A stretch of 64,000 nt of DNA, taken from positions 20,038 to 84,037 of the forward strand of contig JAJYID010000003.1 in assembly GCA_021790235.1 (NCBI GenBank), in the 5' to 3' direction. Origin of the DNA: a bacterium (GTDB lineage Bacteria; Patescibacteriota; CPR2; UBA1875; JAJYID01). Of this stretch, positions 390-46,264 are shown piece after piece. Position 1 is the stretch's first letter. Each line of letters opens with the position of its first letter. Below the pieces are notes generated by a model that saw only the letters and a program-made list of their open reading frames with translations, was not told where the DNA came from and did no database searches. The position numbers were made by a program, and so were the translations under genes.

Positions 390-463
390 TGGCTCGGAGA
401 GAGGGATTCGAACCCCCGTTGCCAGGGCCAGAACCTGGTGTCCTACCGCTAGACGATCTCCGA
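390..463 (-). tRNA. tRNA-Gln (anticodon CUG), CCA encoded
   Basis: Reverse complement reads TCGGAGA-TC-GTCT-AGCGGTA-GGAC-A-CCAGG-TTCTGGC-CCTGG-CAAC-GGGGG-TTCGAAT-CCCTC-TCTCCGA-G-CCA. This is a full cloverleaf of 74 nt with anticodon loop UU-CUG-GC. U1:A72 and G73 are typical of tRNA-Gln. Confidence 0.88.
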
Positions 464-2211: not shown

Positions 2212-2221
2212 TCTCCCTTTG

Positions 2222-2283
2222 TTGTCATTCCGAATGAGATGAAGAATCTTTGAGATTCTTCGCAATCACTCAGGAATGTCAAT
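2222..2283 (-). repeat. imperfect hairpin element (TTGTCATTCC..GAAGAATCT / AGATTCTTC..GGAATGTCAA) in the cysS-dus spacer
   Basis: Arms read directly: a 9-bp GAAGAATCT/AGATTCTTC core and 6-bp CATTCC/GGAATG outer pairing. Related ends occur at 20714-20740 and 61915-61958. Confidence 0.5.
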
Positions 2284-3704: not shown

Positions 3705-3739
3705 TTCTCAGTTTTTAGATTCCTATTAAGCAAAAAGGA

Positions 3740-8091: not shown

Positions 8092-9807
8092 TCACTTGTC
8101 GTACTCATAGTAAAGAATGCGTTGATCTCTGGGTGACGGTATAGCGGTCAGAGATCTTTTAAAGCCGATTTTTCTAAGTTCCTTTAAGGCATCATTCTCC
8201 CAATCCTTTTCAATATATATTTTATAATGATCTGCTGGCAGTTTCAAATCTTTTATGCCACTAACCTCCAATCTTTCAATATCCGGTTTTGTGGAGTAAG
8301 TGATAAATTGAATAGTCTTTGATCCGTATTCGCCCGCAATGAGAATAATTTTTTCGCCCTTTGGTTGAGTATTGATATCATAAGCCATTTGCACCATATC
8401 TTCAGCATAAGCATCTCCTGCTTCGGCATAGCTTGGGAACTTCACGAAGTATTTATAGAATCCGGCCGCTCCCGAAATGATTAAAATCAGAGTTGTACCA
8501 ATATAAAGAGTTTGGCTTGGTTTAATTTGTTTAATCCTAGATAAAACCCACTCAAGTCCTAGAGCAGACCACACAAAAACGACCGGGATTACTCCAACCA
8601 TGCGAAGAGCGTGGGGAATGCCGTCTGATGTTAAGAGCTCTGGCAACGATAGTATCGGAAACCAAACTAGAAGGATAAAATACTCAAGCTTTTTGAATCT
8701 TATCAGGCTAATAGCAACTCCAACCCACATTAAGATTCCAATAAAAATATCAAGCATTGGCTCGCCGGCCACATTCTGCCTGAAATTTTGGTCGCCTGAA
8801 AAATTAAACATACCTATGGTTTTCACTGAGTTTGAAACAAATGCGCCGATTGCGCTACCGCCGTTTGTGACCGGATTAAAAATACTGGTTGAAGAACGAG
8901 CCACCAGATCTGCTGGAACGTGAACAAAATGAATGAGCAGAGGTATCATGATCACTATTGTAGCAACTATAAGATAACCGATTTTTTTGAGATTTTTTCG
9001 GAAAAATCCGCGATCGGTAAAAAATATATAAACTAAAATCGCAAACAAAACCAGCGGGGTAACTCTGAAAGATAGATATGTATAAAATCCAAGAGCCAGG
9101 GACACACCGGCGCCCAGATAATCCCTGGTTTGTCCATTTCTTAAGGCGCGAATAATAAAATAAAAAAGAAATATCAAAGCTAGCGGCGCCATAATAGCCC
9201 GAAAACCGTTCCTGGAAAATTGGATATGCCAGGCGCTTACAGCCAAGGCGGCGGCGGCAAACGTGCCGACATTTTTATTAAAGAGTTCTTTACCTAAAAG
9301 ATAAATCCCCCAAACTGTCAGTACTCCAATGATTGCCGGTGCGATGCGCAGCGATAAAGGCGTGAAATTGATGGCGGCAATATGAAAGACATGCCCAATC
9401 CAAACCGGTATTGCCTGCAGATAGAAAAAAAGCGCTTCTCTGGGACCGTTGGTATCATAGATTGCCGCGAACTTATGCGCATCAAACATACTTATAATAT
9501 CAAGACCGTTCGCGGCTTCATCCGGATGAAGCCCCGGCGGTAATGTACCTAGTTTATAGAATCTTAGAAAAGTGGCAGCTAAAAGGATTAAAGTTAATAT
9601 CCAATTTTCTCCGAGAAGCCTATAGCCTAAAACTACTGGCCGCGATTTCTTCAGTTTTATCAAAGGTGAAGATTGGTTTGGAGTTTTAATCTCACTATCT
9701 TGGTTAGGAAGACCTCGCAGACTGGATTTTTCTACTGAAAATTCTTGTTTCTTTTGTACATCTGAAGCTGATCTTTTATTGATTTTTAATTTTATTTTTC
9801 CTATCAT
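8092..9807 (-). CDS. GT-C fold membrane glycosyltransferase (ArnT/PMT-like), paralog 2
   Basis: PPGLHPDEAANGLD first-loop motif, more than 10 TM segments and a soluble C-terminal domain. Confidence 0.75.
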   Translation of the reverse strand: MIGKIKLKINKRSASDVQKKQEFSVEKSSLRGLPNQDSEIKTPNQSSPLIKLKKSRPVVLGYRLLGENWILTLILLAATFLRFYKLGTLPPGLHPDEAANGLDIISMFDAHKFAAIYDTNGPREALFFYLQAIPVWIGHVFHIAAINFTPLSLRIAPAIIGVLTVWGIYLLGKELFNKNVGTFAAAALAVSAWHIQFSRNGFRAIMAPLALIFLFYFIIRALRNGQTRDYLGAGVSLALGFYTYLSFRVTPLVLFAILVYIFFTDRGFFRKNLKKIGYLIVATIVIMIPLLIHFVHVPADLVARSSTSIFNPVTNGGSAIGAFVSNSVKTIGMFNFSGDQNFRQNVAGEPMLDIFIGILMWVGVAISLIRFKKLEYFILLVWFPILSLPELLTSDGIPHALRMVGVIPVVFVWSALGLEWVLSRIKQIKPSQTLYIGTTLILIISGAAGFYKYFVKFPSYAEAGDAYAEDMVQMAYDINTQPKGEKIILIAGEYGSKTIQFITYSTKPDIERLEVSGIKDLKLPADHYKIYIEKDWENDALKELRKIGFKRSLTAIPSPRDQRILYYEYDK

Positions 9808-9809
9808 CT

Positions 9810-10259
9810 CTACCCTCCTACCTTACATGACGTTGAGCCCTCTATAGTTACAGAATAAAATTCTATGTTAGTCCCCTGATTTAATGTCATTCCTTGACCA
9901 TTATTTTTTTGAATAAAGGCTTTAATTGTATTATCAGACTTTTCATAAATCAATATTGTCTGACCGTTAGAGCAGTTCAAACTTTTTAGATTATCTTCAT
10001 TGATAAAATGAACCTTGTTTTCGAAGAAGCTTTTTGCTGAAGAATTATTCTGCACAATGAAGTACAAATGATCTGAGCTGGGTTTAGTCCTAACATAAGC
10101 ATACATTTCAGAGTACTTAGCACCATTCTTCAAAAGCTTTTGCTTGAACATATTATAGGTCGAGTTGTCAAAAAATACAAAAACTAAAACCAAAACAAAA
10201 ACTGCCAATAAAAATTTAATCAGATTTTTGGTTTTATTTTGCAAGTGAATATTTGCCAC
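9810..10259 (-). CDS. hypothetical N-terminally anchored extracytoplasmic protein (149 aa)
   Basis: A single N-terminal TM helix followed by a beta-rich domain. GTG start overlaps the GT2 3' end by 26 nt, and the stop lies 2 nt before the next gene (operon member). Confidence 0.55.
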   Translation of the reverse strand: MANIHLQNKTKNLIKFLLAVFVLVLVFVFFDNSTYNMFKQKLLKNGAKYSEMYAYVRTKPSSDHLYFIVQNNSSAKSFFENKVHFINEDNLKSLNCSNGQTILIYEKSDNTIKAFIQKNNGQGMTLNQGTNIEFYSVTIEGSTSCKVGG

Positions 10260-11082
10260 TTAGTTTGTTCCATCTTATTTTAAATATTTCGAGGAATGTC
10301 TTTAAAGAGTTGCCAAGTGTGATATTTGTGTCATCAGCATCATCGTACCAACGGACAGGTATTTCTATGATACGCAGATTATATTTCTTAGCGATTACTA
10401 AAATTTCTGTATCAAAACCAAAACCTGGCAGTGTTTGCAGATCGAAAATTTTCTTGGCAGCCTCACTTGTATACGCTTTGAATCCACATCTAGTGTCTGC
10501 AAAGCTTTGGCCGAGTAAAACAACAAAAGTTAGATTACCGCCACGAGAAATTAGTTGTCTTAACCGTCCTTGTTTTTTTATTGTTGTGTTGCTTTTGGAA
10601 TAACCATATATTAAGACCTCAAAAACTTCTCTTAGAGCCTTACCAAACGCTTTCCATGTACTATTCGTGGCGGGAAGTGGTTTTTTAGTATACCTTGAAC
10701 CCATAACGATATCATAACCTTTATCAAAAAAAGGTAGAAGTTTATCAATCTCACTAAATGGCGTGGATGAGTCGGCGTCCATAAACATTTTGATTCTGCC
10801 TTTTGCGAACGCCATACCACATTTTACTGCAGCACCCTTTCCTGTAAAATGCGGGCCAATTTCTAAATCTTGCTCATGTAAAATCTGCAGATATTGAAGT
10901 TTGCCTTTAAACTTTTCCGCTACCTCGGCGCTTCCATCGGTGGAATCACCATCAACAAATACTACTTCTGTATTGAAATTGAGCTTCTTAGAATGTCCAT
11001 AAATATCATTTAATGTTTTGTTCACTCGATTAGCCTGGTTTTTACAAGGGATTACAATTGATAAATAAATATCTTCTGCCAT
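10234..11082 (-). CDS. GT2 polyprenyl-phosphate glycosyltransferase (GtrB/ArnC/Dpm1-like)
   Basis: LSIVIPCKN..VFVDGDSTDGS..FMDADSSTP (DxD-type) is the GT-A family 2 pattern. Confidence 0.85.
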   Translation of the reverse strand: MAEDIYLSIVIPCKNQANRVNKTLNDIYGHSKKLNFNTEVVFVDGDSTDGSAEVAEKFKGKLQYLQILHEQDLEIGPHFTGKGAAVKCGMAFAKGRIKMFMDADSSTPFSEIDKLLPFFDKGYDIVMGSRYTKKPLPATNSTWKAFGKALREVFEVLIYGYSKSNTTIKKQGRLRQLISRGGNLTFVVLLGQSFADTRCGFKAYTSEAAKKIFDLQTLPGFGFDTEILVIAKKYNLRIIEIPVRWYDDADDTNITLGNSLKTFLEIFKIRWNKLSGKYSLAK

Positions 11083-11086
11083 AATT

Positions 11087-12637
11087 TTACTCTCCTTTTA
11101 TAAGAGCAAGGTCAGCTCCGTATGTTGAATTTAAGTTTTTATTTTTCATTTTTGATTTTACTTCAAAAAGTCTTTCAGGGGAAGTTAATAAAATAAATTT
11201 GTCCGGATTTTCTATTTTTTTGAGGCTGTCAATCTCTATCAGTTTGTTGTTGCCCCCATTTTTCAAAATAGATTCGAGAGCTTGTTCTGTAAGACCTGTT
11301 TTATATAGATAAATTGGGTTGTTGCCAAAGCTCATTGAGGCAACCTTTGTATTATAGACATACTGTCTTTCAGGGTATTTTTGCCAAGCTATAAAAACTT
11401 TTTGGTAATTATACGTAAGAGCCAAGGAAAACATAAACCCGATGCCTAAAACCATTGTGATCCTTGCAAATTTGTTAAAAGGGAATGTTTTAAACCATTT
11501 CTCTAAAACAAATGTCTGGATTCGTGCTGACAAGATAAAAATAATCGGTAATATATAAATGAAGCTAGCCAGAGTAAAATCTTTTTCAAAAAATATAATT
11601 AGAGTTAGGATAGCCAGCCATGAGATTATAAAATAGAACTTACGCCTTTTAATCCTTAGACAGGCATATGTCAAACCAGCCAGAAAAGTTAAAAGAACGA
11701 AGGGATCGAAAATCCTGTCTGTGGAAAGTGTATACAGATAATTTCTTGGTGCAGAAAAGAGCAAAGAAGAAAAGAAAAGATTGATATTATATAAGATTAG
11801 GCTGGGTTTTAAGGTAAAGTGAGACAAAAAAATATTTGGGTTCCTTATATTTACATAAAGATAAGGTATAGCTACTATTATACCGCTAGAGAGCGCCAGT
11901 ATTTTTTCCTTAATGAAGGATTTAAAAAAGAGACTATTTTTTCTATAAAAATAGATTAAAGAGATCAATAGCAGAATAGCTAGTGTGAAGGTGATGGCAC
12001 TTGCATAAAACGCAATACCAAACAAAAGTCCTGATAAAACAAAGTAAAGTTTTCTTTTCTGCCTGTAGGCAAGAGTAAGAGTGTGAAAAGCAAAGATCAC
12101 AAGAGAAAAATATAATATTTCATGAGAGATAGCGCGAGAAATGAAAATATAGTAACTTGAGATAGATAAAAGAAATGCAGCAATATATGCTAAACGCCTA
12201 TTAAACCATTCTTCGGTAAATTTAAAAAATATATAAAGGCCAAAAATTCCAAGAAAGACTGAGAATATTCTCATATTTGTAAGCGAAAATCCAAAGAAAC
12301 GGCCCCAAATATTCTGCAAAAAATAATAAAGATTTGTAGAGACATCTTGATTAAAAAAGTTTGCCGGATTTGACATTAAAAAGACGCGATCGACATTTTT
12401 TAGTTCAACTGCGCTTATTCCTAGACTTCCGATATCATAGAGCCTAGTTAAAAAAGCAAAAACAAGTATAACCCAGAGATATGAAGGTTTAAAAAGTAAA
12501 ACTTTCAGTTTCGACAATAAAGTACCTACCGAAAGCCTTGGATTTTTTATCACTCCAGAAGAGGGTTCTCTTGTTTTCGGAATGCCGGAATCTTTACTCC
12601 TTTTTCTTGTTTCCTTTATCTTGGAGAGTGTTTTCAT
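11087..12637 (-). CDS. GT-C fold membrane glycosyltransferase (ArnT/PMT-like), paralog 3
   Basis: Polytopic membrane protein with the same overall architecture as the other two. It is more divergent, so the call rests on topology and context. Confidence 0.6.
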   Translation of the reverse strand: MKTLSKIKETRKRSKDSGIPKTREPSSGVIKNPRLSVGTLLSKLKVLLFKPSYLWVILVFAFLTRLYDIGSLGISAVELKNVDRVFLMSNPANFFNQDVSTNLYYFLQNIWGRFFGFSLTNMRIFSVFLGIFGLYIFFKFTEEWFNRRLAYIAAFLLSISSYYIFISRAISHEILYFSLVIFAFHTLTLAYRQKRKLYFVLSGLLFGIAFYASAITFTLAILLLISLIYFYRKNSLFFKSFIKEKILALSSGIIVAIPYLYVNIRNPNIFLSHFTLKPSLILYNINLFFSSLLFSAPRNYLYTLSTDRIFDPFVLLTFLAGLTYACLRIKRRKFYFIISWLAILTLIIFFEKDFTLASFIYILPIIFILSARIQTFVLEKWFKTFPFNKFARITMVLGIGFMFSLALTYNYQKVFIAWQKYPERQYVYNTKVASMSFGNNPIYLYKTGLTEQALESILKNGGNNKLIEIDSLKKIENPDKFILLTSPERLFEVKSKMKNKNLNSTYGADLALIKGE

Positions 12638-20693: not shown

Positions 20694-20908
20694 TTTTGTT
20701 TCCTTCTTTCCTATTGTCATCCCAGACTTGATCTGGAATCTATATTTTATTCTTATGGATCCTGAATTTCTCCAAAGACAAGCAAGCAAGTTCAGGATGA
20801 CAACGGAGTTGTCAATTAAAAAATCTTTGGACAAACCAAAGACGAATAAAAAATATCTGAATCTTTACCTTGGTAGCAAATTAAGCTTTCGCAGCTACTG
20901 TCTTTGGC
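20694..20908 (-). promoter_or_regulatory. structured 5' leader of rplJ-rplL (possible L10-leader-type autoregulatory RNA)
   Basis: About 215 nt lie between the predicted -10 and the start codon. UUGUCAUCC (rc of 20795-20803) pairs with GGAUGACAA (rc of 20714-20722), enclosing two internal hairpins (CCUGAA/UUCAGG, CCAGA/UCUGG). The helix ends 20 nt before the AUG. Confidence 0.35.
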
Positions 20909-20914
20909 TGCTCT

Positions 20915-20943
20915 TATTCTAACAAATAATAAATAAATGGTCA
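20915..20943 (-). promoter_or_regulatory. sigma70-like promoter for rplJ-rplL (TTGACC-17nt-TAGAAT)
   Basis: Hexamers read directly on the minus strand: -35 at 20943-20938, -10 at 20920-20915. Confidence 0.5.
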
Positions 20944-20986: not shown

Positions 20987-21077
20987 TTAAAGGTGGATAT
21001 GGCGGAGGGTAATCTGACTAGCCGCTTTTTTATTTGCCGGCTGGTTGCAACTTTTCAATCGAATAGGAGGAATTTCC

Positions 21078-21728
21078 GTGGGAAAGAAAAAAGGGAAAGT
21101 CTTTGTACTTGACGGTCCGGATGGCTGCAGTAAGACAACTCAGATTATCGAACTCACTAACAATATTCGAGAAAATGAGGAAAATGCTAAAGTTGTGTTA
21201 ACCAGAGAACCGTATGACTTTCCCGATAACACGATCGGTATGTCTATCCGCAACATTTTGGAGCATCGTGAAGTTCATCCACCCAATGCTGAAGCTTTCC
21301 AGTATCTGTTTTATCTCGACAGAGTAGAACACTGGAAAACAGTGCTCGGCCCAAGGAGAGAGGAAGGTTGTTATTGTCTTTCAGACCGTGAACGGATGGT
21401 AACCTATGCTCACGGTGTGGCAGGAGGAGTCCCTCTTGACATGATGATGAAGTGGCACGATGGTCTCCCTATTGCTGATCTCTACATATACATGAAGGTA
21501 ACAGCAGAGAAGGCTCTCGAACGGATCAATAAGAAAAATACGGAAATGGGGAAAGATCCCGATTACTTCGAAACGAAGGATCGCGTCCAGAAAAATGTTG
21601 AAGCGTTTGACTGGATCGCTAGAACGGGTATTATACCCAATCTCGTAACAGTCGACGCCAACCGCACTATTGAAGAGATCCGGCAGTCTATCTGGAACAT
21701 TGTTTTCCCCATCATTGACAAACTATGA
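21078..21728 (+). CDS. tmk: thymidylate kinase-like (dNMP kinase) P-loop protein
   Basis: FVLDGPDGCSKTTQ P-loop, YLDRVEH and LSDRERMVTYAHG (DR/DRY-like), and a LID-like ERINKKN..DYFE. AGGAGG (21065-21070) lies 7 nt before the GTG at 21078. The track ORF starts at an upstream TTG. Confidence 0.75.
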   Translation: MGKKKGKVFVLDGPDGCSKTTQIIELTNNIRENEENAKVVLTREPYDFPDNTIGMSIRNILEHREVHPPNAEAFQYLFYLDRVEHWKTVLGPRREEGCYCLSDRERMVTYAHGVAGGVPLDMMMKWHDGLPIADLYIYMKVTAEKALERINKKNTEMGKDPDYFETKDRVQKNVEAFDWIARTGIIPNLVTVDANRTIEEIRQSIWNIVFPIIDKL

Positions 21729-21743: not shown

Positions 21744-23159
21744 ATGATAAATCAGGAAAAAATGCCACAAGTACAACTCATTGCAAAAACCGACATGTCC
21801 CTGGAAAATTTGGTATCCTACGATGCGCTCACCTGCACCAGACAAGAACTGCCGATTCTCGGGGAAACCATCCCGATCGGTAGTGTTTACGAAAGCGGAC
21901 ATCACTCAACCCTGGAGTGCAACTACTACACCTTCGCCATTGAATATATACCGATTGGCGTCGGCATAGACTTTGGTCTGCATGTTGCATCTCCTCATTA
22001 CAACACTGGCCAGCGATCTGGCCGGTATGTGCAGGATATGTTCGCTAATCCGCCTCGGAAACTCCTAGCCGAACAGCTGAAAATGTTTTATCACGGAGAG
22101 ATCGGGGAGTCAGTATCTAGCGATATCCTGGATTACCTGGAGTTCTGCATCGGCGTCTTCAAGAAACGCAGTCCGGAAGCAGAGAAGATCTGCGCCAGGT
22201 TCCTAAAGGAAGATCGGCCGAAGGCAAGTTCCGAGTATATTGAAGGTAATGCGCCCAAGATGGCTCAGGAACAACTTCGCGGCGTCATTCCGGTTATTTT
22301 CCCAACGGCGCTGACTTTCACGGTCAACTTCATTACCGCCGCTTCATTATACGCAGCAGCATGGAACCCCTACATGCGCTATGTGACTTCCATAATGATG
22401 AAGCAGATTTTCGCAGTCGAGGATTCCAAGGAAACACGAAAGATCAAGAAGAGCCTAATGAGCTGGAAGCGCGAGAACTGGGCGCCAGGAGAACCAAAAT
22501 ATCCTATAGCTATCATTGATACACCAATAGCGCGGTTATTGAGTGTCAACTTCCCTCCTGGTATAGAATTCATCACACCACACAAAAGAGATATCGATGT
22601 TCTTGATCTTCTACCGGTTCATCCAAGGTACATGAATAATGGGACGATCAACATGCAAGTGGAAATGGGAGTCTCTTTGGCAACCTATGGCCAGGACCAG
22701 CGACATCGTTCAATCCGCCGTTCGGAACCACAGTTTACCAACGGTTTCTATGCGCCTCCACTCATCCAGGAAATCGGTATGGAGGATGACATCCACGAGG
22801 TCATGAGCCGCTGGAACAGCTTCATAGGAAAAGTCCCGGATACTCTTTTTGCCGGAATAGCTCCGTATAATGCCATGGTCGGCTATATCAAGTCGGCCGA
22901 TGTCAATTCCTTTATCCATGATGCCGTTCGCAGATACTGCAATACGGCTCAAGAAGAGAACAACACCGGCTTCGTTCTCCTGCGCAGTGCAGTGAAGGAA
23001 GCGGCCGAGAAAGACCCACGCCTGAATCCATTAGTGAAGTTACTCGCACCTCCCTGCTGGGAGGGAGGGGTATGTCATGAGAAAATTCGGCAATGTGGCC
23101 GCGACAGAAGCAAGAAAGCGCGAAGCTCCGAAGAATACTTCGCGAGAAGAAGAGTCTAA
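21744..23159 (+). CDS. thyX: tandem-duplicated (fused) flavin-dependent thymidylate synthase ThyX-like protein, 471 aa
   Basis: Repeat 1: SGHHSTLE..YTFAIEYIPIGV..FGLHVASPHYNTGQRSGRYV. Repeat 2: MQVEMGVSLATYGQDQRHRSIRRSEPQF and RRYCNTAQEE. Both resemble the ThyX core, with RHR..S..SxRY split between the halves. Confidence 0.7.
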   Translation: MINQEKMPQVQLIAKTDMSLENLVSYDALTCTRQELPILGETIPIGSVYESGHHSTLECNYYTFAIEYIPIGVGIDFGLHVASPHYNTGQRSGRYVQDMFANPPRKLLAEQLKMFYHGEIGESVSSDILDYLEFCIGVFKKRSPEAEKICARFLKEDRPKASSEYIEGNAPKMAQEQLRGVIPVIFPTALTFTVNFITAASLYAAAWNPYMRYVTSIMMKQIFAVEDSKETRKIKKSLMSWKRENWAPGEPKYPIAIIDTPIARLLSVNFPPGIEFITPHKRDIDVLDLLPVHPRYMNNGTINMQVEMGVSLATYGQDQRHRSIRRSEPQFTNGFYAPPLIQEIGMEDDIHEVMSRWNSFIGKVPDTLFAGIAPYNAMVGYIKSADVNSFIHDAVRRYCNTAQEENNTGFVLLRSAVKEAAEKDPRLNPLVKLLAPPCWEGGVCHEKIRQCGRDRSKKARSSEEYFARRRV

Positions 23160-34943: not shown

Positions 34944-35149
34944 TCTTTCAAAGGATGAAGTCAGAAACTTTGTTCTGCAAAATTTATTGAGACATAAAAA
35001 GAAGAAATTTCTCAGCTCACCTGTTGTATAAGACTTCAGATAGTATCAGTCGGGATGATGATCTATAATTGTCCTTCATATTCATATCGTAAGTGCCTTT
35101 ACAACTTATTTTTTTTCAGTTAAGCTATTTCTATATTACACATTTTGCG

Positions 35150-35172
35150 AGGGTATTTATTACCCTTTTTTT
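35150..35172 (+). terminator. weak terminator after prfA (GGGTA-5nt-TACCC plus T7)
   Basis: Read directly. The stem is short. Confidence 0.4.
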
Positions 35173-35217
35173 GCAACGCTCTTTTTAAAATTAAATCATG
35201 GAACAAAGGAGAATTTT

Positions 35218-36309
35218 ATGTCAGGCAAAATATCTTCTATCAAAGTTGCACCAATGCCAGGAGTATTAAACCCGGAGGAAATAATTCCTGAGAGGAGAAG
35301 CGACGGAGCTGTCGGATACGATCTAAAAGCAATCCGACATTTGAAAATGGACAAATCAAGAGAACCGATTTCTGATAGTTTCCCAGTTACGATAGAACCT
35401 GGAGGAAAGGCACTTTTCGGACCCGGTTTTGCGATGTCAATTCCTGAGGGTTATGAAGGCCAGATCAGGCCAAGAAGTGGTATGTCAATGAATGACATTG
35501 TGCTTGCAAATCAGGTCGGCACAATTGACCCCGACTATCGAGGTGAAGTCGGCGTCTGCCTGCGTAACGACAGTGAAAAAGCATTTGTTGTGAATCAGGG
35601 TGATTCAATCGCTCAACTCCTCATTACTGAGGTCCAGTTACCGGGAATGCACCTTGTTGAGTCAGTAGAAGATCTCCCCGAGACAAAAAGAGGTACAGGC
35701 GGTTTCGGTTCAACCGGCATGAGCGGTGCCGGCCACGGAACAGCTACCTACAAGGCTCAAATCCATAATATCGACTGCTATCTGATGGGAATTGCCATCT
35801 CGACCTCTGCTCTTTCAGATTGTGTTAGAGGGTGTAAGTTAAATCCCGATGGTACTACGAAGCGAGATGACTTTGGCATTCTTGTTGGCCAAACGCGCAG
35901 GTTCGGTGCCGTTTTTGCCAGAGGAGCACGCGTTCTCTCAACTGGATTTAACCATCAGGTAAAAGGCCAGAGTCGCTGTGCTGAGGTTGGATGTCTCAGG
36001 GATGCAGAAAAAATCCCTTCGGGACATCGCCTCGAAAGATGCCGAGCCATTCACGCTGAAGAAGATGCGATCATGACCGCGGGTTATAACGGTATCTCAC
36101 TCAAAGGCAGTACTTTATACGTGAACGCTGAACCCTGCCAAATGTGTTCAAAAAGCATCGCCTCACTCAGCCTGAAGGCAGTTGTTATTCTCAGCAACTC
36201 CTATCCCGAGTCTGGCGTCGACATCATAGAAAATGCTGATATCCAGGTTAGGACTATCAGCATGAATGATGTCCGCCGTTTCCAAGGGATAGCAGATCTT
36301 ATAAGTTAA
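35218..36309 (+). CDS. bifunctional dUTPase / dCMP deaminase fusion protein
   Basis: N-terminal half: AVGYDLKA, RPRSGMS, GTIDPDYRGEVG, RGTGGFGSTG (trimeric dUTPase motifs). C-terminal half: CRAIHAEEDAI and EPCQMCSKSI (cytidine/dCMP deaminase zinc site). AAAGGAGAA SD. Confidence 0.85.
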   Translation: MSGKISSIKVAPMPGVLNPEEIIPERRSDGAVGYDLKAIRHLKMDKSREPISDSFPVTIEPGGKALFGPGFAMSIPEGYEGQIRPRSGMSMNDIVLANQVGTIDPDYRGEVGVCLRNDSEKAFVVNQGDSIAQLLITEVQLPGMHLVESVEDLPETKRGTGGFGSTGMSGAGHGTATYKAQIHNIDCYLMGIAISTSALSDCVRGCKLNPDGTTKRDDFGILVGQTRRFGAVFARGARVLSTGFNHQVKGQSRCAEVGCLRDAEKIPSGHRLERCRAIHAEEDAIMTAGYNGISLKGSTLYVNAEPCQMCSKSIASLSLKAVVILSNSYPESGVDIIENADIQVRTISMNDVRRFQGIADLIS

Positions 36310-36326: not shown

Positions 36327-36362
36327 AAATGCGGGGTCATAGCGGTCCCGCATTTCTTTTTC
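36327..36362. terminator. terminator hairpin after the dut-dcd fusion (AAATGCGGG-11nt-CCCGCATTT, then TCTTTTT)
   Basis: Read directly. It lies between convergent units. Confidence 0.6.
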
Positions 36363-38852: not shown

Positions 38853-38975
38853 GATTTTTATTTTTTCGTTATTTATAATTACGATTGCTCCTTCGCTTGC
38901 AAGTTTGAGAGTGATTGCCTCACCAATTCCTCTAGATGAGCCTGTTATAAGGGCTATTTTATCCTTCAATTTCAT
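38835..38975 (-). pseudogene. remnant of a short-chain dehydrogenase/reductase (FabG-like): only the first ~33 residues are SDR-like
   Basis: Own translation: MKLKDKIALITGSSRGIGEAITLKLASEGAIVIINNEKIKILTLLC*. TGxxxGIG Rossmann motif is present, then the frame ends. Its ATG overlaps the MBL stop (TGATG). Confidence 0.65.
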
Positions 38976-39634
38976 CAAACCTCTATCTCCATTAAATCTT
39001 CGCCCACTACAATTTCCCCTTGATATTTTTCTTTCACCTCAGAAGCTAGATCAACTTTTTCCAGATTTGGATAGATGTGCGTCAGGATCACCTTCTTGAC
39101 ATTACTTTTTACTGCAACTTCACCAATTTCATAAGTGTTTAAGTGTGCCGGACTTCCATGATCTTTGTCGTATGAAGTATCGCAAATAAAGAGGTCTGCA
39201 TCTTTTGCTGCCCTTTCTAATCCTTCACATTTTGTACTATCACCAGAAAATGCAAACACTTTGCCATCATATTCAAATCTCAAAGCGTAGGCATGAGATG
39301 GTCTAAAAGCTTTATGCTCTACCTTGTAAGCTTTTGCAACAAGGTTGCTCAACTCCTCGCTTTTACCATATACTTTATATTTTATCTTGTCCCAGTCATA
39401 AAAAGCTGGGAGTTCATACACCTCTGACAATCTCTTCGTGAAACTCTCTATACCTTTGGGGCCAAAAATGGTTGGCAATTTTTCAAGTCCTTTTTCAAGG
39501 AAAATATCACTCAAGCGAAGATTCATCTGGAAAGCGAAAAGATCTCCCGAGTGATCTGGGTGGAAGTGGGTGAGAAAAACATAATCCATATCAAGCGGAC
39601 TGAGCCCTATCTGCGAAGCGCCCCCGGTCCGCAA
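38975..39634 (-). CDS. MBL-fold metallo-hydrolase (RNase Z/ElaC-like), C-terminal 219-aa fragment of a frameshifted gene
   Basis: LTHFHPDHSGDL (HxHxDH) follows directly after the frameshift point. Confidence 0.8.
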   Translation of the reverse strand: MRTGGASQIGLSPLDMDYVFLTHFHPDHSGDLFAFQMNLRLSDIFLEKGLEKLPTIFGPKGIESFTKRLSEVYELPAFYDWDKIKYKVYGKSEELSNLVAKAYKVEHKAFRPSHAYALRFEYDGKVFAFSGDSTKCEGLERAAKDADLFICDTSYDKDHGSPAHLNTYEIGEVAVKSNVKKVILTHIYPNLEKVDLASEVKEKYQGEIVVGEDLMEIEV

Positions 39635-40290: not shown

Positions 40291-41586
40291 TTACTCATAT
40301 CGCAGGGCTTCAGCCGGATCCTTACGGGAAGCTTTGATGGCGGGGAAAAGCCCGAAAACAACACCTACAGCTACTGAGATAGCGATTGCCAAGATAACCG
40401 TCGGCAGGTCAACAACTGCTTGGACGGCGCCGTCTCTGGCGCCAGGGGCAAAGCTCAAGAATCGGCTGGAATAGTTTGAGAGAACCATCCCCAGACCCAA
40501 GCCGATAATCCCGCCGCTTACAGTCAAAATAACTGATTCGATTAAGAATTGGAAAAGAATGTGAGCAGTTTTAGCTCCGACCGCACGTCTGAGGCCGATT
40601 TCGCGAGTTCTTTCGGTAACTGTTACCAGCATAATGTTCATAATACCAATCCCGCCAACCACGAGTGAAATAGCGGCAATCCCCGTCAGTGTTGCCGTGA
40701 AACCACCCATAATAGAAGACATTGTCGACATCAAATCCTTGCTGGTAGTGGTAGATACATCGGCTTTGTCAGCGGAAACCTTGTGAGCGGCGAGAATCGC
40801 ATTTTTAATACTAGCAGCCGTCTCATCAACCGTGTTTTCACTCTTGGCATCGGCAATGACAGAGCTCATCTTATCCTTGCCGTTCAAGGCCAACCAAGAT
40901 TTATATCCTATATAAATATTTTCCGAGGGATCGCCTCCCCGAAACATGCCTTGGGTGTTTGTATCAGGCTGAGTGATGACACCGATAACTGTATAAGGCG
41001 CATCTTTGATATAAATAGTTTGACCGACCACGGTTTTTTCATTTGGGAAAAGGTCGGAAGCGGTTGTACTGCCGATCACAGCTACGTTGTTTGAACCAGC
41101 TACTTGAGCGTCGCTGATAAAACTACCCGTCTGCATGGCCCATGATTTAAGGCTCAAATATTTGCTGTCAATCCCGAAAACCCGGTATTGCGTGGCTTGG
41201 GCGGCATTTGCCTGGGTAGCAACAGCCAGCTGAGTGCTTACCTCCGGCGAAGCTTGGGCAATCTCCGGATTATTTTTAATGGTGTTGTAGTCGGCATCTG
41301 AGAGAGTCTCTGTGTTTGACTGCTGAAAAATGAAACCACCCTCTCCCCTCCGGCCTTTCTGCCTTTGAGCCGTTTGTTTGTTCGGATCAACTGAACTAAT
41401 GGTAATTCTTTTGATTCCCAATGTGCTGACTCTTGACTGAACTGTTTTTTGCAAGCCATTTCCAAGTGCGACCAGCGTTATCACAGCCGCGATGCCGATA
41501 ACAATACCGAGGATAGTCAAAGCACTTCTGCCTTTGTTATGCCAAATGCTTCGCGTGCTCTGCATAATGATTGAACCTATTTTCAC
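40291..41586 (-). CDS. MacB/FtsX-type ABC transporter permease (4 TM plus periplasmic domain)
   Basis: N-terminal TM, MacB_PCD-like external domain of about 220 aa, and a C-terminal FtsX 3-TM module ending ..PAIKASRKDPAEALRYE. Confidence 0.9.
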   Translation of the reverse strand: MKIGSIIMQSTRSIWHNKGRSALTILGIVIGIAAVITLVALGNGLQKTVQSRVSTLGIKRITISSVDPNKQTAQRQKGRRGEGGFIFQQSNTETLSDADYNTIKNNPEIAQASPEVSTQLAVATQANAAQATQYRVFGIDSKYLSLKSWAMQTGSFISDAQVAGSNNVAVIGSTTASDLFPNEKTVVGQTIYIKDAPYTVIGVITQPDTNTQGMFRGGDPSENIYIGYKSWLALNGKDKMSSVIADAKSENTVDETAASIKNAILAAHKVSADKADVSTTTSKDLMSTMSSIMGGFTATLTGIAAISLVVGGIGIMNIMLVTVTERTREIGLRRAVGAKTAHILFQFLIESVILTVSGGIIGLGLGMVLSNYSSRFLSFAPGARDGAVQAVVDLPTVILAIAISVAVGVVFGLFPAIKASRKDPAEALRYE

Positions 41587-42269
41587 TTTTTGCCCCCCTC
41601 TACCCGGCCGTCACGAAGTCTAATAATCTTTTTGGCATAGGCCGCAATGTCTTCCTCGTGAGTTATAAGGACTATTGTAGTACCTTGCCGGTTGATTTCG
41701 GCAAGCAGACCCATAATTTCTTTTGCAGTTGAAGAATCCAGATTCCCAGTCGGTTCATCGGCAAGTAAAATTGACGGGTTCATCATTATAGCTCTTGCAA
41801 TAGCCACCCGTTGTACCTGACCACCGGAGAGCTGATTGGTCCTTGAGCTGATTTTCTCAATCAAGCCAACCTTCTTAATCATCTTAAGCGCCCTCGTCTC
41901 ATCATCGTGGCCCGGATGATAAGTTGTCGGCATGAGCACATTTTGCATCACCGTTGTCCGAGGCAATAGATTAAATTGCTGGAAAACAAACCCGATTTCC
42001 TTGCCTCGAATCTCGGACAGCTTGCCGCCCTTAAGCTTGCGCACATCCTGGTCGTTTAAGTGATATTTCCCTTCAAATGAGGAATCCAGAAGACCAATGA
42101 TATGCATAAGTGTAGACTTCCCCGAACCACTCGCCCCCATAATGGCCAGAAAGTCACCCGATGCAAGAGTCAAGTCTATTCCTCGAAGCGCCCATGTTCC
42201 GGCCCCGCCGTCCTGGCGATATATTTTTCTAATGCCTTTAAGCTCAATGACCGGATTCTTTGTTGTCAT
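41583..42269 (-). CDS. ABC transporter ATP-binding protein (MacB/LolD-like)
   Basis: GASGSGKST, LSGGQVQRVAIARA, ILLADEPTGNLD. Overlaps the permease by 4 nt. Confidence 0.93.
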   Translation of the reverse strand: MTTKNPVIELKGIRKIYRQDGGAGTWALRGIDLTLASGDFLAIMGASGSGKSTLMHIIGLLDSSFEGKYHLNDQDVRKLKGGKLSEIRGKEIGFVFQQFNLLPRTTVMQNVLMPTTYHPGHDDETRALKMIKKVGLIEKISSRTNQLSGGQVQRVAIARAIMMNPSILLADEPTGNLDSSTAKEIMGLLAEINRQGTTIVLITHEEDIAAYAKKIIRLRDGRVEGGKK

Positions 42270-42679
42270 TATTGTCCCGTCTTTGATTTTAAATAATTTG
42301 TAAGGGCGTCAGCTTGGGCTTGGGTTATCTGGCTGTTTGAGGCTGCATTACTTATTCTCTGCGAAAACCTGTCGACCAACTGAGATTTAAAATTGTCCGG
42401 AACCCGGCTCAAGAATGTATCGACCGCACTTTGATTCAATGACTTATCGCTATTAAAAAACCTAGATAAATTCATGCCGCCTTGCTGGCTGCCGCCATTT
42501 CTAAACATCATCCCGCCGCCAGAACCGCCGCCAAAAGGTCCACCTGCCTTTTTCTGTAATGCATAATATCCGGTACCAGCAAGCGCGATGACCAAAACAA
42601 TGCTCACGGCAAGCAGTACCTTCGACTTCTTGCGCTCTTTCAAATATAGATCTTCGATTGACTGTTTATCTTTGTCCAC
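42269..42679 (-). CDS. hypothetical anchored protein with a Gly/Met-rich segment (136 aa)
   Basis: One TM helix, then GGPFGGGSGGGMMFRNGGSQQGGM, then a helical C-terminus. GTG start. The stop overlaps the ATPase start. Confidence 0.55.
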   Translation of the reverse strand: MDKDKQSIEDLYLKERKKSKVLLAVSIVLVIALAGTGYYALQKKAGGPFGGGSGGGMMFRNGGSQQGGMNLSRFFNSDKSLNQSAVDTFLSRVPDNFKSQLVDRFSQRISNAASNSQITQAQADALTNYLKSKTGQ

Positions 42680-42878
42680 TTTTTGATTTTAATGATGTTA
42701 TTCTGGTCTGCCTGTTCCGGAAAAAAGTGTAGACCGTAACAAAATCCTCAAATTTAATTACTTGTGCAAGTCTAAAGTTTAAACCTGAGAGACGGCTTAG
42801 AAGATTATTTAATAATTTTCCAGTTCACAAGGATTTTTGAAGGATTGTATAGATTTTGAGTTGAGTTTAGTAGGCAAA

Positions 42879-43901
42879 TTATTTAGAAACCGGCAGTTTG
42901 ACTGTAAAAACTGAACCGTTTTTGTTGCTGTCGGCGTGGATGGTGCCGCGGTGAACACCGGTAATTTGCTTGGCGATAGAGAGACCAAGGCCGGTGCCCC
43001 CCTTTGACCGGGAAATATCAGCGCGATAGAAACGGCTGAAGATATGTGGGAGATCGGACTGTTTGATACCGGCGCCTTGATCTGCAACCTTGAAAACCGC
43101 ATGTCCATGCTCCTCGGCGAGTGAAACTGAGACTTTACTTTTCTTTGGCGAATATTTAATAGCATTGTCAAGGAGGATCACGGAAAGTTGGGTGAGACTT
43201 TGGCGGTCGCCCATGACTTTTGCGCCACCGAGATCAAAGGTAAAACTGATATCTCTATTTTTTGCCAGCGCCTTGACCTTTTCATACGACTCCTCAACCA
43301 CTGCCTTGAAGTCAACCTCCACTTTTGGAATCTCTTTGATACCCTGATACTGCGCTAGTGATAGAAGGTTATTCGACAAAGATTCAAGCTTAGAAATCTC
43401 CTCAAGGTTTGATCCGAGCAATTTTTTGGCGTCCTCTAAGTTTAATTGTTTGTCGCGTAAACTGACTTCAATTTCTGTTTTCATAGCCGTTAGCGGAGTG
43501 CGAAGTTCATGCGAAGCGTCGGCGGTAAATCTATTTTGCTTGTCAACCATTTCAGCGATAGGATGAAGCGTCCTTTTGGCTAGAAAGTAACTGGCGCCGC
43601 CGGACAGGAATAAAATCAAGATATTAAAGCCTAAAAGATCGAGCTTCAGGCGGTTTGAGCTGGCTTCCAGCTGTTCCAGACGAGTATTCTCAAAAACCCG
43701 AAATCTTTCGGGACCGATTTGTACACCCATAATCGGCATTCTTTGAATTTGGCGATTTTGCCTGCTAAGGGCTGTATTCAACTCCCGTGCTGAAAACTGG
43801 TAGAGCACCAAGCTGAAGATAATACTGATCGCCATAGCAATAACCACGTAAAATCCGGTTAATTTCCAGATAGCCGACTTAAACTCCACTATCTCCTCCA
43901 A
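42879..43901 (-). CDS. sensor histidine kinase (two TM, HisKA plus HATPase_c)
   Basis: H-box SHELRTPLT, N-box LLDNAIKYS, G-boxes DQGAGI and GGTGLGLSI. Confidence 0.92.
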   Translation of the reverse strand: MEEIVEFKSAIWKLTGFYVVIAMAISIIFSLVLYQFSARELNTALSRQNRQIQRMPIMGVQIGPERFRVFENTRLEQLEASSNRLKLDLLGFNILILFLSGGASYFLAKRTLHPIAEMVDKQNRFTADASHELRTPLTAMKTEIEVSLRDKQLNLEDAKKLLGSNLEEISKLESLSNNLLSLAQYQGIKEIPKVEVDFKAVVEESYEKVKALAKNRDISFTFDLGGAKVMGDRQSLTQLSVILLDNAIKYSPKKSKVSVSLAEEHGHAVFKVADQGAGIKQSDLPHIFSRFYRADISRSKGGTGLGLSIAKQITGVHRGTIHADSNKNGSVFTVKLPVSK

Positions 43902-44562
43902 TCTTGTAGCCGAAACCGCGGATGGTCTTTACAAGGGACGGACCCTTGTAAGGCTTGTCAACTTTGTTTCGAAGATAGCCGACATAAACTTCAACCGTAT
44001 TAGGCAGAATGTCGGCGTCAAAGTCCCAGACGTGCTCGATGATCTGGTCCTTGGTCAAAATGCGCTCGGGATTTCGCATTAAATATTCAAGAAGAGAATA
44101 CTCTTTCGGCGTGAGCATAATGTCGCGGCTGTCCCGGGTGACCCGCTTGGTGATGGTGTCAAGCGTCAGGTCGCCGACAACCAAAATAGTACCGGTTTGT
44201 TCCTGAGGCCGGCGCAGCAGCGCTTTTACTCTAGCCAGCAATTCGTCAAAGGCGAATGGTTTGATTAAATAATCATCGGCACCGGAGTTTAACCCTTCGA
44301 CTCGATCGGAAATCTTGTCTTTAGCGGTCAGCATGAGGACCGGCGTCTCCTTGCCTTCTTTGCGCATCGCATGACAGATTTCGAGACCGTCCATCCCCGG
44401 CAGCATCCGGTCGAGGATTATTAAATCATAAGGAAGAGCGAGGGCCGAGTCCTGTCCATCACGGCCGTCGTACTCCACATCCACGGCATATGACTCTTGC
44501 TCGAGGCCTCTTTTGATCGCGTTTGCAATCTTCTCGTCATCTTCAACAATAAGTATTCTCAT
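43879..44562 (-). CDS. OmpR/PhoB-family response regulator
   Basis: MRILIVEDD..DLIILDRMLPGMDG..LTAK receiver domain, and a winged-helix ..LTPKEYSLLEYL..IRGFGY. Confidence 0.95.
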   Translation of the reverse strand: MRILIVEDDEKIANAIKRGLEQESYAVDVEYDGRDGQDSALALPYDLIILDRMLPGMDGLEICHAMRKEGKETPVLMLTAKDKISDRVEGLNSGADDYLIKPFAFDELLARVKALLRRPQEQTGTILVVGDLTLDTITKRVTRDSRDIMLTPKEYSLLEYLMRNPERILTKDQIIEHVWDFDADILPNTVEVYVGYLRNKVDKPYKGPSLVKTIRGFGYKIGGDSGV

Positions 44563-44720
44563 AGTTTAATTTTCCTCCAGTTGAGCCTTTTATTCAACCA
44601 CTACCGGTTGTGTCAGCTGTAAGTTCAACTTGACATAATCCTCAGATGTGAAATCAGGCGCTAACAATCATGACAATACCGGCAAACATTCGGTAAAGGC
44701 GCAATAGAGGTAAAGCTTGA

Positions 44721-45299
44721 TTATAATGAGTTCGTGTTTGTGGTTTGGGTTCGATCAATGACGCGAGTCGCTTGGATAACGCCTTTGGAATCTTGCTCAC
44801 CGGAAACAATTACCTGGTCACCCACTTTCACTTGAGTGCCGGAATTTACCGGAAAACGGGTAGTGTCTGTAATCTGAACCGTTTTGGTTGTGCCGCTAGC
44901 ATCAATTGTAAATTGCTGGCCGTTTACGGCCGTCACTTTACCGCCTACGGCATTACCAATCACAAAGCCGTTTGAGTTTAATCCTCCGCGAAATCTATGT
45001 CCTCTTCCCATCATACCACCGCGAAATCCTCCTCTCATCATGCCATATCCGCCTCGGCCGTAAAACCCACGCTTGCTGAAAGGCCTGCCATTCTTAAAGT
45101 GAACTGCTGCAAAAGCACCAACAATCACGATAAAGACTGCCACCGCGATAAGCGCAACGATTAAGCCTTTCCTACTGCTTGATTTGTCTTGGCCTTGTGA
45201 TTGTTCTCCGGTTCCCGGCTTGGGAATATCTTTAATTGCTTCTTTTGAATTATCTTGTCCTGCCATAATAAAACTTTCATTTTTTCGAATGAACCGCAT
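44721..45299 (-). CDS. hypothetical anchored protein with a Gly/Arg/Met-rich segment and a DUF5666-like beta domain
   Basis: One TM helix, then GRGGYGMMRGGFRGGMMGRGHRFRGG, then GKVTAVNGQQFTID..VKVGDQVIVSG.. The start is uncertain (ATG 45299 or 45266). Confidence 0.6.
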   Translation of the reverse strand: MRFIRKNESFIMAGQDNSKEAIKDIPKPGTGEQSQGQDKSSSRKGLIVALIAVAVFIVIVGAFAAVHFKNGRPFSKRGFYGRGGYGMMRGGFRGGMMGRGHRFRGGLNSNGFVIGNAVGGKVTAVNGQQFTIDASGTTKTVQITDTTRFPVNSGTQVKVGDQVIVSGEQDSKGVIQATRVIDRTQTTNTNSL

Positions 45300-45373
45300 C
45301 TGGATGACTCTTCGAATTAATTAATATTTTGCAGCAAAAGAATATAAAATCAGACTGAGAATCGGCTTAGAAT

Positions 45374-45439
45374 AAAAAAACAGCAACGCTTCTTTGCGTT
45401 GCTGTGTGGTGGGTTGTCCTTTGCGAACAACCCACCACA
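45374..45439 (-). terminator. tandem hairpins after the DapB-like gene: a 13-bp GC-rich stem, then a 9-bp stem plus U7
   Basis: TGTGGTGGGTTGT-9nt-ACAACCCACCACA (45405-45439). CAGCAACGC-6nt-GCGTTGCTG (45381-45404) is followed on the minus strand by TTTTTTT (45374-45380). Confidence 0.7.
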
Positions 45440-45448
45440 TTTTGAGAT

Positions 45449-46264
45449 CTACCGATACTCATCTAAGACAAGCCTTGTATTACTCGCCATGTAGATCAGT
45501 TTTGGCAGTACCAAATCACGCACACCAACAGCATATGGTATGCGGCCGTTTACCCTTATATCCCAACTGAGAGATTGGTCTTCACCGGATAAGGTCACTC
45601 TGTGATAACCATGACCGGTCAGAAACTCTGCCGGTACTCCCCACTCCTCCATCTGTACTTTCGGATCACGGATGGATTCTATTTCGTCGACCTCTGCACC
45701 GGCAAATTCTAATGCCTCTTTCATTTTAATCGCCGTTGCCGGGACGGATTTTTTACTCGCCTGATGGCTTTCTGCCACATGCGCTTTACACCCACGAAAA
45801 GCATACGGATTTACTTCACCAATACCTTTCAGGTTGTTAATAAAGCTAATGACAGGTATTGCGGCATTCATACACCGCAAGAGATGAAAACGGCGGCCAC
45901 GATTTACCTTGACAAGGTGTTCCAAACCATTCTCAACCTCTTTTGTTTTGTAACCGACTGTACCAAGTTGAAGAGTTGGAATACCATTGGCTGCGAAAAT
46001 GTAAGCGCTATCGAGTTGGGACAGATTTGACGCATCCACGACAACAAAGCCTCCTTCTGCAACGCCTCGCGGATCTTTTTCGAAGTCATCTGCCGTGATG
46101 ATTTGAAACCGGCGGCCAAGAAGATCATGTACCCTGGTTTCTCGTCCAATTGAATAAGGTATCACATTGTAACGTTTGTCCTCTTGGATAACCTTGGCTA
46201 CTACCGGCCCCAGTTTACCGGTGATCCCGCTGACCATTACGTCGGTTGATTCTGCACTAATCAA
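45449..46264 (-). CDS. DapB (4-hydroxy-tetrahydrodipicolinate reductase)-like oxidoreductase, divergent
   Basis: Collinear with E. coli DapB from memory: VSGITGKLG (GxxGxxG-like), VVVDASN..LGTVGY, ESHQASKKSVPATAIKMKE versus [20 protein letters not shown], and RIPYAVGV versus RMTFANGA. TTG start at 46264 is uncertain. Confidence 0.55.
   Translation of the reverse strand: MISAESTDVMVSGITGKLGPVVAKVIQEDKRYNVIPYSIGRETRVHDLLGRRFQIITADDFEKDPRGVAEGGFVVVDASNLSQLDSAYIFAANGIPTLQLGTVGYKTKEVENGLEHLVKVNRGRRFHLLRCMNAAIPVISFINNLKGIGEVNPYAFRGCKAHVAESHQASKKSVPATAIKMKEALEFAGAEVDEIESIRDPKVQMEEWGVPAEFLTGHGYHRVTLSGEDQSLSWDIRVNGRIPYAVGVRDLVLPKLIYMASNTRLVLDEYR

Follow-up and report, generated by a model that had tools for sequence, protein, structure and literature searches.

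A conserved gene fusion of dUTPase and dCMP-deaminase-type domains in Patescibacteria-type bacteria

The fused gene and its two domains

The DNA sequence studied here is a window of 64,000 nucleotides (positions 20,038 to 84,037 of contig JAJYID010000003.1, assembly GCA_021790235.1) from a bacterium assigned to the CPR2 lineage of the Patescibacteriota. It includes a gene that codes for a 363-aa protein with two domains, a dUTPase of the trimeric type followed by a zinc deaminase of the dCMP-deaminase/ComEB type (Table 1). The open reading frame (ORF), read directly from the window, has no internal stop codon. It is preceded by a Shine-Dalgarno sequence and, as terminator-like hairpins are located on both flanks, the gene looks like a transcription unit of its own. 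The initial annotation of the window, a reading of the letters made without database searches, had likewise described a single ORF with its own Shine-Dalgarno sequence and terminator, and these signals are present. The remaining genes of the window are ordinary housekeeping ones (L31, prfA, EF-Ts, S2, RRF, MreBC, PBP2, the L10 leader and ABC transporters), and the minus strand carries 47 of the 54 long ORFs (87%), close to the 85% estimated initially. The order L31-prfA-fusion is kept in a close relative (70% identity). When the 64 kb were searched with chosen seed sequences, no second dUTPase or dCMP-deaminase ORF was found.

Table 1. Coordinates of the fusion gene, its signals and motifs, and other features of the window.
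Feature	Coordinates	Strand	Residues	Remarks
Fusion ORF (dUTPase + dCMP-deaminase-type domain)	35218..36309	+		363 aa, ATG start, stop included
Shine-Dalgarno sequence AAAGGAG	35205..35211	+		6 nt ahead of the fusion-gene ATG, read directly
Terminator-like hairpin + T-run	35149..35167	+		Separates prfA from the fusion gene
Terminator-like hairpin, 12 pairs, then T-run	36327..36355	+		18 nt past the fusion-gene stop
dUTPase domain, trimeric type	35266..35721	+	17-168	Profile, PDB sequence and fold matches
dUTPase motif I, AVGYDL	35308-35325	+	31-36	
dUTPase motif II, RPRSGMS	35467-35487	+	84-90	
dUTPase motif III, GTIDPDYRGEVG	35518-35553	+	101-112	
dUTPase motif IV, GDSIAQ	35599-35616	+	128-133	Arg missing
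dUTPase motif V, RGTGGFGSTG	35689-35718	+	158-167	
Gly-rich linker MSGAGHGT	35719..35742	+	168-175	Low model confidence; with helix alpha1, length invariant across the family
Zinc deaminase domain, dCMP-deaminase/ComEB type	35743..36282	+	176-355	
Fusion-family-specific insert	35830..35895	+	205-226	Between C202-x-R204 and R227
HAE catalytic zinc motif	36052-36060	+		In HAEEDAI, residues 279-285
PCxxC catalytic zinc motif	36133-36147	+		In PCQMCSKSI, residues 306-314
Putative structural-zinc Cys			202, 254, 259, 275	Deaminase domain
dTMP kinase gene tmk	21045..21728	+		TIGR00041 86.5 bits vs 83.25; 12 kb upstream of the fusion, separate unit
ThyX-like gene, divergent; probable flavin-dependent thymidylate synthase, long form	21744..23159	+		471 aa; 12 kb upstream of the fusion
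Metallo-beta-lactamase-fold gene	38975-39634	-		219 aa; weak Pfam match to Anti-Pycsar Apyc1
Two-component system and MacB-type ABC transporter block	40291-46264			Raised GC
Ribosomal protein L10 leader (Rfam)	20809-20925	-		Upstream of rplJ
tRNA-Gln(CTG) (Rfam)	390-463	-		

The N-terminal half of the protein matches the Pfam dUTPase family (PF00692, residues 23-167, E = 4.7e-24) and passes the curated NCBIfam cut-off of TIGR00576 dut (125.8 bits vs 102.55) as well as that of NF001862 (121.8 bits vs 103). Compared with PDB sequences, it retrieves many dUTPases with E values of about 1e-24, and its AlphaFold2 model is a jelly-roll beta-barrel that Foldseek aligns to solved dUTPases with template modeling (TM) scores of 0.86-0.89. 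A secondary match to TIGR02274 dCTP_deam is weak (22.8 bits vs 92.8) and overlaps the Dut domain. This half had been credited initially with all five dUTPase motifs, motif IV being left blank. The motifs that were quoted are present and motif IV can be read as GDSIAQ, with its glutamine (Gln133) retained; nevertheless, the claim was overstated, as the motif IV arginine is missing. Its position is occupied by Ser130, the residues found in the window protein and its three closest relatives being S, Y, C and C, while the arginine is present in 116 of the 119 other family members. Across 120 homologues, D35, R86, G88, D104, D106, Q133, R158, F163 and G164 are invariant, and S87 is conserved in at least 90%. 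With respect to homotrimeric dUTPases (H. pylori, 8HRV; A. aeolicus, 8Y1Q; M. tuberculosis, 1SIX), the fold, motifs I, II, III and V, and the motif IV glutamine are alike. In contrast, the fusion protein has about 15 extra residues past motif I (residues 41-55), a serine in place of the motif IV arginine, which is lost across the subclade of the window protein, and a motif V that is not C-terminal, being followed by an 8-residue Gly-rich linker and then by a deaminase domain of 190 aa.

The C-terminal half matches PF00383 dCMP_cyt_deam_1 (residues 227-325, E = 8e-16, 58 bits vs a threshold of 25), and a Pfam search, proposed as a check in the initial annotation, therefore finds both expected families. 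The half does not reach the ComEB equivalog TIGR02571 (53.9 bits vs a cut-off of 219.45). Among PDB sequences its best match is the T4 dCMP deaminase (5e-13), followed by the S. mutans, cyanophage S-TIM5, PBCV-1 and human enzymes; when this half is modeled alone, the top 14 Foldseek matches are all dCMP deaminases (T4, S. mutans, S-TIM5, human and PBCV-1). The zinc site made up of HAEEDAI and PCQMCSKSI lies where it had been placed initially, and its catalytic residues do not vary in the 120 sequences: H279-A-E281, P306-C307 and C310 are invariant, as are C202, C254, C259, N245 and Y329, while C275 is present in 119 of the 120. The traits described for the dCMP deaminase family are a two-helix insert before HxE, a second zinc site and a Cys after helix 1, together with a signature consisting of 'NA' two residues after HxE and of NxxP ending strand 2 (Iyer et al., 2011, PMC3239186). 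Helices 254-257 and 260-263 of the model fit a two-helix insert ahead of HxE with a second zinc site. NxxP becomes N-x-x-x-P in the fusion family, with one residue more before the proline, and the window protein has no proline there.

For comparison, the C-terminal half was aligned with the 71 stand-alone proteins closest to it, ComEB-type sequences 140-200 aa long. R204, R227, R261, S268-G269, R276 and the second-zinc Cys pattern are common to the fusions and to these relatives. Between R204 and R227 the fusion family includes a stretch of 20-22 aa that occurs in none of the 71. A mostly conserved E305 also sets the fusions apart. The characterized dCMP deaminases (T4 Cd, 1VQ2; S. mutans, 2HVW; S-TIM5, 4P9C; human, 2W4L), which are the best sequence and fold matches of the half, have in common with it the HxE and PCxxC zinc site, the Cys-rich second zinc site, the two helices before HxE, G-x-N and a conserved Tyr. 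They differ from the fusion in that the latter carries the insert past its first zinc Cys, reads HAE(E/W/Q)(D/M/W)A instead of HAExNA, and has a variable residue at the position equivalent to T4 R115.

Distribution of the fusion and arrangement of its domains

The fusion is real and has been kept in numerous relatives of the Patescibacteria type. Two independent assemblies, a 102.7-kb ENA contig and a Logan contig of another run, code for exactly the same protein. A search of 5.8 billion clustered proteins retrieved at least 120 homologues of 333-383 aa, with 43-73% identity, all of them with both Pfam domains. The named homologues are all called "dUTP diphosphatase" and come from metagenome-assembled genomes of Patescibacteria, Parcubacteria or Berkelbacteria. 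By scanning metagenome contigs with the deaminase half alone, and by looking up individual homologues, we obtained 59 distinct loci (at 95% identity) where the matching stretch forms the C-terminal portion of a fused ORF. The proposal that both domains belong to one gene and not to two is borne out by these fused orthologues and by the identical ORF in two assemblies. In one relative (L120, positions 9493-10543 of an 804-kb metagenome contig), the fusion ORF is split within the dUTPase half, which corresponds either to a frameshift pseudogene or to an assembly error.

When 1.84 billion representatives were searched exhaustively with the C-terminal half, only about 20 clusters at 50% identity matched from the very start of the query, insert included, and nearly all of these are fusions of 334-382 aa. 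The existence of a free-standing deaminase bearing the insert was considered and rejected: of six short matches inspected, three (P0125, P0134, P0136) are fragments with an N-terminal GGFGSTG, while no dUTPase motif is seen in the other three, which may come from truncated gene calls. In contrast to the dCMP deaminase/ComEB enzymes, the insert-bearing domain is never free-standing in the complete proteins inspected, all of which also carry the dUTPase half. A recent fusion of neighboring stand-alone genes was rejected as well. The fused halves are only 28-34% identical to the stand-alone dut and dCMP-deaminase genes of the same loci, and therefore the fusion is an ancient lineage that did not arise recently at these loci.

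A phage origin was also discarded, as no phage record covers at least 80% of the protein and the lengths of the IMG/VR matches fit stand-alone deaminases without the insert. In Dulem virus 37 (L250, PP511443.1, positions 1856-3792), thyX, a hypothetical gene and the genes for dUTPase and dCMP deaminase follow one another, and the last two (dut and dcd) share a reading frame and are 57 nt apart. This row is plausibly a pre-fusion arrangement, and would show how such a fusion could arise.

The full-length fusion was not found in species-representative genomes, a search in which the full-length-alignment query was swamped by generic dUTPase patterns and gave single-domain partial matches only. 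Our literature searches found no paper describing a fusion of dUTPase and zinc dCMP deaminase, and the fusion is unmentioned both in a survey of gene fusions (PMC4921024) and in 'Life without dUTPase' (PMC5122711). The domains themselves belong to textbook families and both are detected as Pfam domains by automated annotation; it is their combination, the rigid linker, the insert and the co-occurrence with paralogues that the papers searched do not describe.

Of the 107 sequences that could be scored, 105 have 32 residues between motif V and the S-x-C-x-R motif, at a family identity of about 45%. A spacing that remains fixed at such divergence points to a set geometric relation between the domains and not to a loose tether, and argues for domains held in a fixed geometry. 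AlphaFold2, run on the family alignment, gave a predicted local distance difference test (pLDDT) score of 91 and a predicted TM score (pTM) of 0.77, with low confidence limited to the motif V arm and the Gly-rich linker (approximately residues 150-175). Foldseek found no PDB chain spanning both halves. The dCMP deaminases reported so far are ring hexamers with a three-fold axis (PMC12088426). If the fused deaminase formed a ring with 32 symmetry, three N-termini would be located on each face, and an assembly of six chains, with each face of the ring capped by one dUTPase trimer, would satisfy both symmetries, so that trimer and hexamer need not be in conflict in principle. The 'unusual assembly' evoked initially appears overstated, since two dUTPase trimers capping one deaminase ring would suit both halves.

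Thymidylate genes around the fusion and proposed function

The pair of tmk-like and ThyX-like genes that the initial annotation had located upstream of the fusion is present, on the plus strand (Table 1). The ThyX-like protein passes Pfam Thy1 (44.5 bits), is far below the cut-off of TIGR02170 (32 bits vs 87.9) and has no PDB or PHROG match. With so divergent a partner, the completed route from dUMP to dTDP proposed initially is no more than plausible. The ThyX-like protein is about twice the usual ThyX length. Its N-terminal part keeps HxxxE and S-G-R-Y and has LHV instead of RHR, its C-terminal part has RHR and R..C..AQxE, and the whole protein looks like two complementary half-degenerate ThyX repeats. 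The long ThyX form also adjoins tmk in L085/L111, and directly adjoins the fusion in L136.

Flanking sequences of the 59 distinct loci add up to 570 kb, in which a single-copy gene placed randomly in a 1-Mb genome is expected 0.57 times. tmk was found near the fusion at 11 of these loci (Poisson P = 3e-11), thyX at 7 (P = 2e-6) and the serine hydroxymethyltransferase (SHMT) gene at 4 (P = 3e-3). The fusion directly adjoins thyX or tmk in L087, L096, L104, L106, L135 and L136. The presence of these genes beyond chance supports the assignment to the thymidylate pathway, and the link to thymidylate synthesis that had been suggested from the window alone is upheld.

We consider it fairly probable, on the basis of the sequence features described, that the protein combines two enzymes, with both halves active and both supplying dUMP to ThyX and Tmk, and with dCMP as the default substrate of the deaminase. 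The N-terminal half would act as a trimeric-type dUTPase, converting dUTP to dUMP and pyrophosphate (PPi) and thus keeping uracil out of DNA. The C-terminal half would act as a zinc deaminase, converting a deoxycytidine nucleotide into a deoxyuridine nucleotide, most simply dCMP into dUMP. The dUMP from both halves would then pass to the ThyX-like enzyme and subsequently to Tmk. dCMP is taken as the default substrate because the nearest characterized relatives act on dCMP; both activities, as well as this substrate, are what we infer.

De novo synthesis of nucleotides is largely missing in Patescibacteria, or the candidate phyla radiation (CPR), which live by scavenging them. The balance of dC and dT pools and a low level of dUTP bear on the host dependence of these bacteria, and the fusion family would be a compact, conserved module for that step. 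As the public annotation reads "dUTP diphosphatase" only, metabolic reconstructions of CPR bacteria miss a deaminase. From the structural point of view, a large domain that directly follows the mobile arm (motif V) of a trimeric dUTPase on a linker of invariant length would put ideas on arm closure and subunit swapping to the test. The fusion may also show a dCMP-deaminase ring that is stabilized without the classical dCTP effector site.

Several observations weigh against the proposed assignment. The fused deaminase domain lacks G246, H253, N283, Q287, T303 and N316, which are near-invariant among the 71 closest stand-alone proteins. In the fusions T303 is mostly replaced by N, and Q287, N316 and H253 are replaced as well. 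N283 of HAExNA, which is N in 68 of the 71 stand-alone relatives, is D in the window protein and M or W in most fusions. Position 246 is G in 65 of the 71 relatives vs 4 of 120 fusions, being H in the window protein and A, D, H or C across the family. In addition, the fusion family has its unique insert of 20-22 aa and an invariant R345. Moreover, a separate canonical dCMP deaminase is encoded near the fusion at 7 clear and 3 atypical loci of the 59, usually paired with an AAA_17/18 kinase, and a separate dUTPase is also present in two loci (L083, L087). Finally, the loss of the motif IV arginine may have changed the kinetics of dUTP hydrolysis in the window protein and the three sequences nearest to it.

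With separate dCMP deaminases at 7-10 of the 59 loci, and with residues conserved in stand-alone enzymes that differ here, dCMP, which the initial annotation had taken for granted as the substrate, is a presumptive one. The fused halves share so little sequence with the co-resident genes (28-34% identity) that they are more likely to differ from them in specificity or regulation than to be mere duplicates; likewise, the presence of old paralogues side by side in small CPR genomes speaks for a fusion that does more than duplicate dut and a dCMP deaminase. The allosteric dCTP/dTTP site of dCMP deaminases includes a G(Y/W)N(A/G) motif and lies at a protomer interface built by helices alpha2 and alpha3 (PMC12088426). 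G243 and N245 of this motif are invariant in the fusion family, and position 244 is F or Y. As the replaced residues sit in the motif and in alpha2, the classical effector site and/or the ring interface would be remodeled, the roles of N283 and Q287 included, and the fused deaminase is probably devoid of the classical dCTP/dTTP allosteric site. Regarding the other half, the African swine fever virus dUTPase is active although no motif IV arginine is found among its listed ligand contacts, and changing its motif IV glutamine to alanine has a cost of more than 100-fold (PMC7948977). The dUTPase half of the window protein is expected to be active, possibly with altered kinetics.

Alternative readings and related systems

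As a rule, gene fusions bring together successive steps, above all when the intermediate between them is harmful. The existence of the present fusion would be explained if the protein were a sequential enzyme, in which the zinc deaminase half turns dCTP (or dCDP) into dUTP and the fused dUTPase converts it at once into dUMP and PPi, so that mutagenic dUTP is never released. The canonical dCMP deaminases co-residing with the fusion would then have non-redundant roles. The loss of the alpha2 residues of stand-alone relatives, together with the change of the last G(Y/W)N(A/G) residue, would mean that dCTP need not be an activator. The position of the insert beside the zinc/active-site region and the extra R345 near the domain C-terminus also fit this scheme, the rigid spacing would be consistent with coupled sites, and triphosphate precedents exist within the fold, namely PBCV-1 bi-DCD, the XP-12 deaminase and CDADC1 (PMC12088426). 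However, the enzymes that the deaminase half resembles most in sequence and in fold are specific for dCMP (T4, S. mutans, S-TIM5); PBCV-1 bi-DCD comes only 12th, and CDADC1 is absent among the 50 matches listed. Furthermore, the basic residues R204, R227, R261 and R276 are common to ordinary ComEB-type relatives and hence not specific to the fusion, and G243 and N245 of the allosteric motif do not vary. Taking all this into account, we regard a sequential enzyme as the main alternative, possible but unlikely. The channeling suggested in the initial annotation would apply to this dCTP to dUTP to dUMP scheme alone, and is meaningless if the two halves make dUMP independently.

The known system to be compared in this respect is DCD-DUT. 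Its net chemistry, from a deoxycytidine nucleotide to dUMP, and its role in both dUMP supply and dUTP control could be like those of the fusion. Nevertheless, DCD-DUT consists of one dUTPase-fold domain with zinc-free deamination (PMC12088426), whereas two unrelated folds and a zinc-type deaminase are found here. Should the deaminase half use dCTP, the strategy of DCD-DUT would have been invented independently in the fusion. It is only tentatively that we describe it as a convergent, two-fold counterpart of the single-domain enzyme, in which the insert would adapt a dCMP-deaminase scaffold to a triphosphate and the pair of kinase and canonical deaminase would handle dCMP/dC salvage. PBCV-1 bi-DCD (7FH4), the phage XP-12 5mdCTP deaminase, vertebrate CDADC1 and the AvcD-type enzymes share the deaminase fold with the fusion and, judging from this comparison, the phosphorylation state of the substrate is plastic within the fold family. 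A dUTPase partner is found in none of them; the additional domain is a P-loop kinase-like one in AvcD-type proteins and a second, inactive deaminase domain in CDADC1. The window protein is less similar to the triphosphate-accepting zinc deaminases than to the dCMP-specific enzymes.

Returning to the two-enzyme protein with dCMP as default substrate, one of its halves could be silent and serve as a scaffold or regulator. The dUTPase trimer might hold the deaminase ring together instead of dCTP-driven hexamerization, or the dUTPase of the subclade might be crippled by the Arg-to-Ser change in motif IV. The S/Y/C/C residues at position 130 of the window protein and its three closest relatives, the replacement of classical allosteric/interface residues in the deaminase half, and the purely architectural role of the inactive CDADC1 deaminase domain (PMC12088426) are in line with this. 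On the other hand, little or no variation is seen at the remaining catalytic residues of either half among 120 sequences that are about 45% identical, which indicates selection on both sites. Most loci have no other dUTPase gene in the fetched flanks, and the motif IV arginine is not universal in active dUTPases (PMC7948977). We hold a silent half to be improbable.

Still less credible is an anti-phage, nucleotide-depleting enzyme akin to AvcD-type dCTP deaminases. The partial matches that suggest it, NF041025 (54 bits) and PADLOC PDLC02373 (59.5 bits), correspond to the generic deaminase core only, the former being far below its 400-bit cut-off and the latter covering positions 432-484 of 630 (53 residues). 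The window protein has no kinase-like domain, its context and that of its relatives is a housekeeping one (prfA, L31 and thymidylate genes), and a fused dUTPase would recycle the product to dUMP and not deplete the pool. Lastly, an artefact by which two adjacent genes were merged through a sequencing or assembly error would find some backing in the split ORF of L120 and in the adjacent, in-frame phage dut and dcd genes 57 nt apart, but it is next to impossible given the identical ORF in two independent assemblies, the 59 fused orthologues, the two-domain homologues and the fixed linker length.

Some of the genes that accompany the fusion deserve mention. The stand-alone dUTPase of L087 (positions 11080-11502, minus strand) has a degenerate motif V, RGDNWSGSSGK instead of RG.GGFGSTG; this copy may be impaired, the fused one being then the working dUTPase. 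The gene pair coding for the AAA_17/18 kinase and the stand-alone dCMP deaminase is found in CPR thymidylate clusters at L083 (15825-16923), L087 (11788-12886), L107, L118, L132 and L134. Its two products match consecutive segments of PADLOC PDLC02373 (152-329 and 337-484, respectively), and the same kinase and deaminase domains are also found fused in proteins of 315-362 aa. This raises the question of whether the pair is a housekeeping, split relative of the AvcD-type architecture.

Within the window, the GC content of the fusion gene (0.477) and of the long thyX (0.492) is higher than the mean of the window genes (0.403), by 1.7-2.1 standard deviations, and the block comprising a two-component system and a MacB-type ABC transporter is raised to the same extent. 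A different origin or the amino-acid composition may account for these values. The metallo-beta-lactamase-fold gene adjoins a DUF5661 gene, and the same pair is present in the close relative L086, where the Apyc1 match is not marked as weak. Rfam identified the ribosomal protein L10 leader and tRNA-Gln(CTG), both of them ordinary (Table 1).

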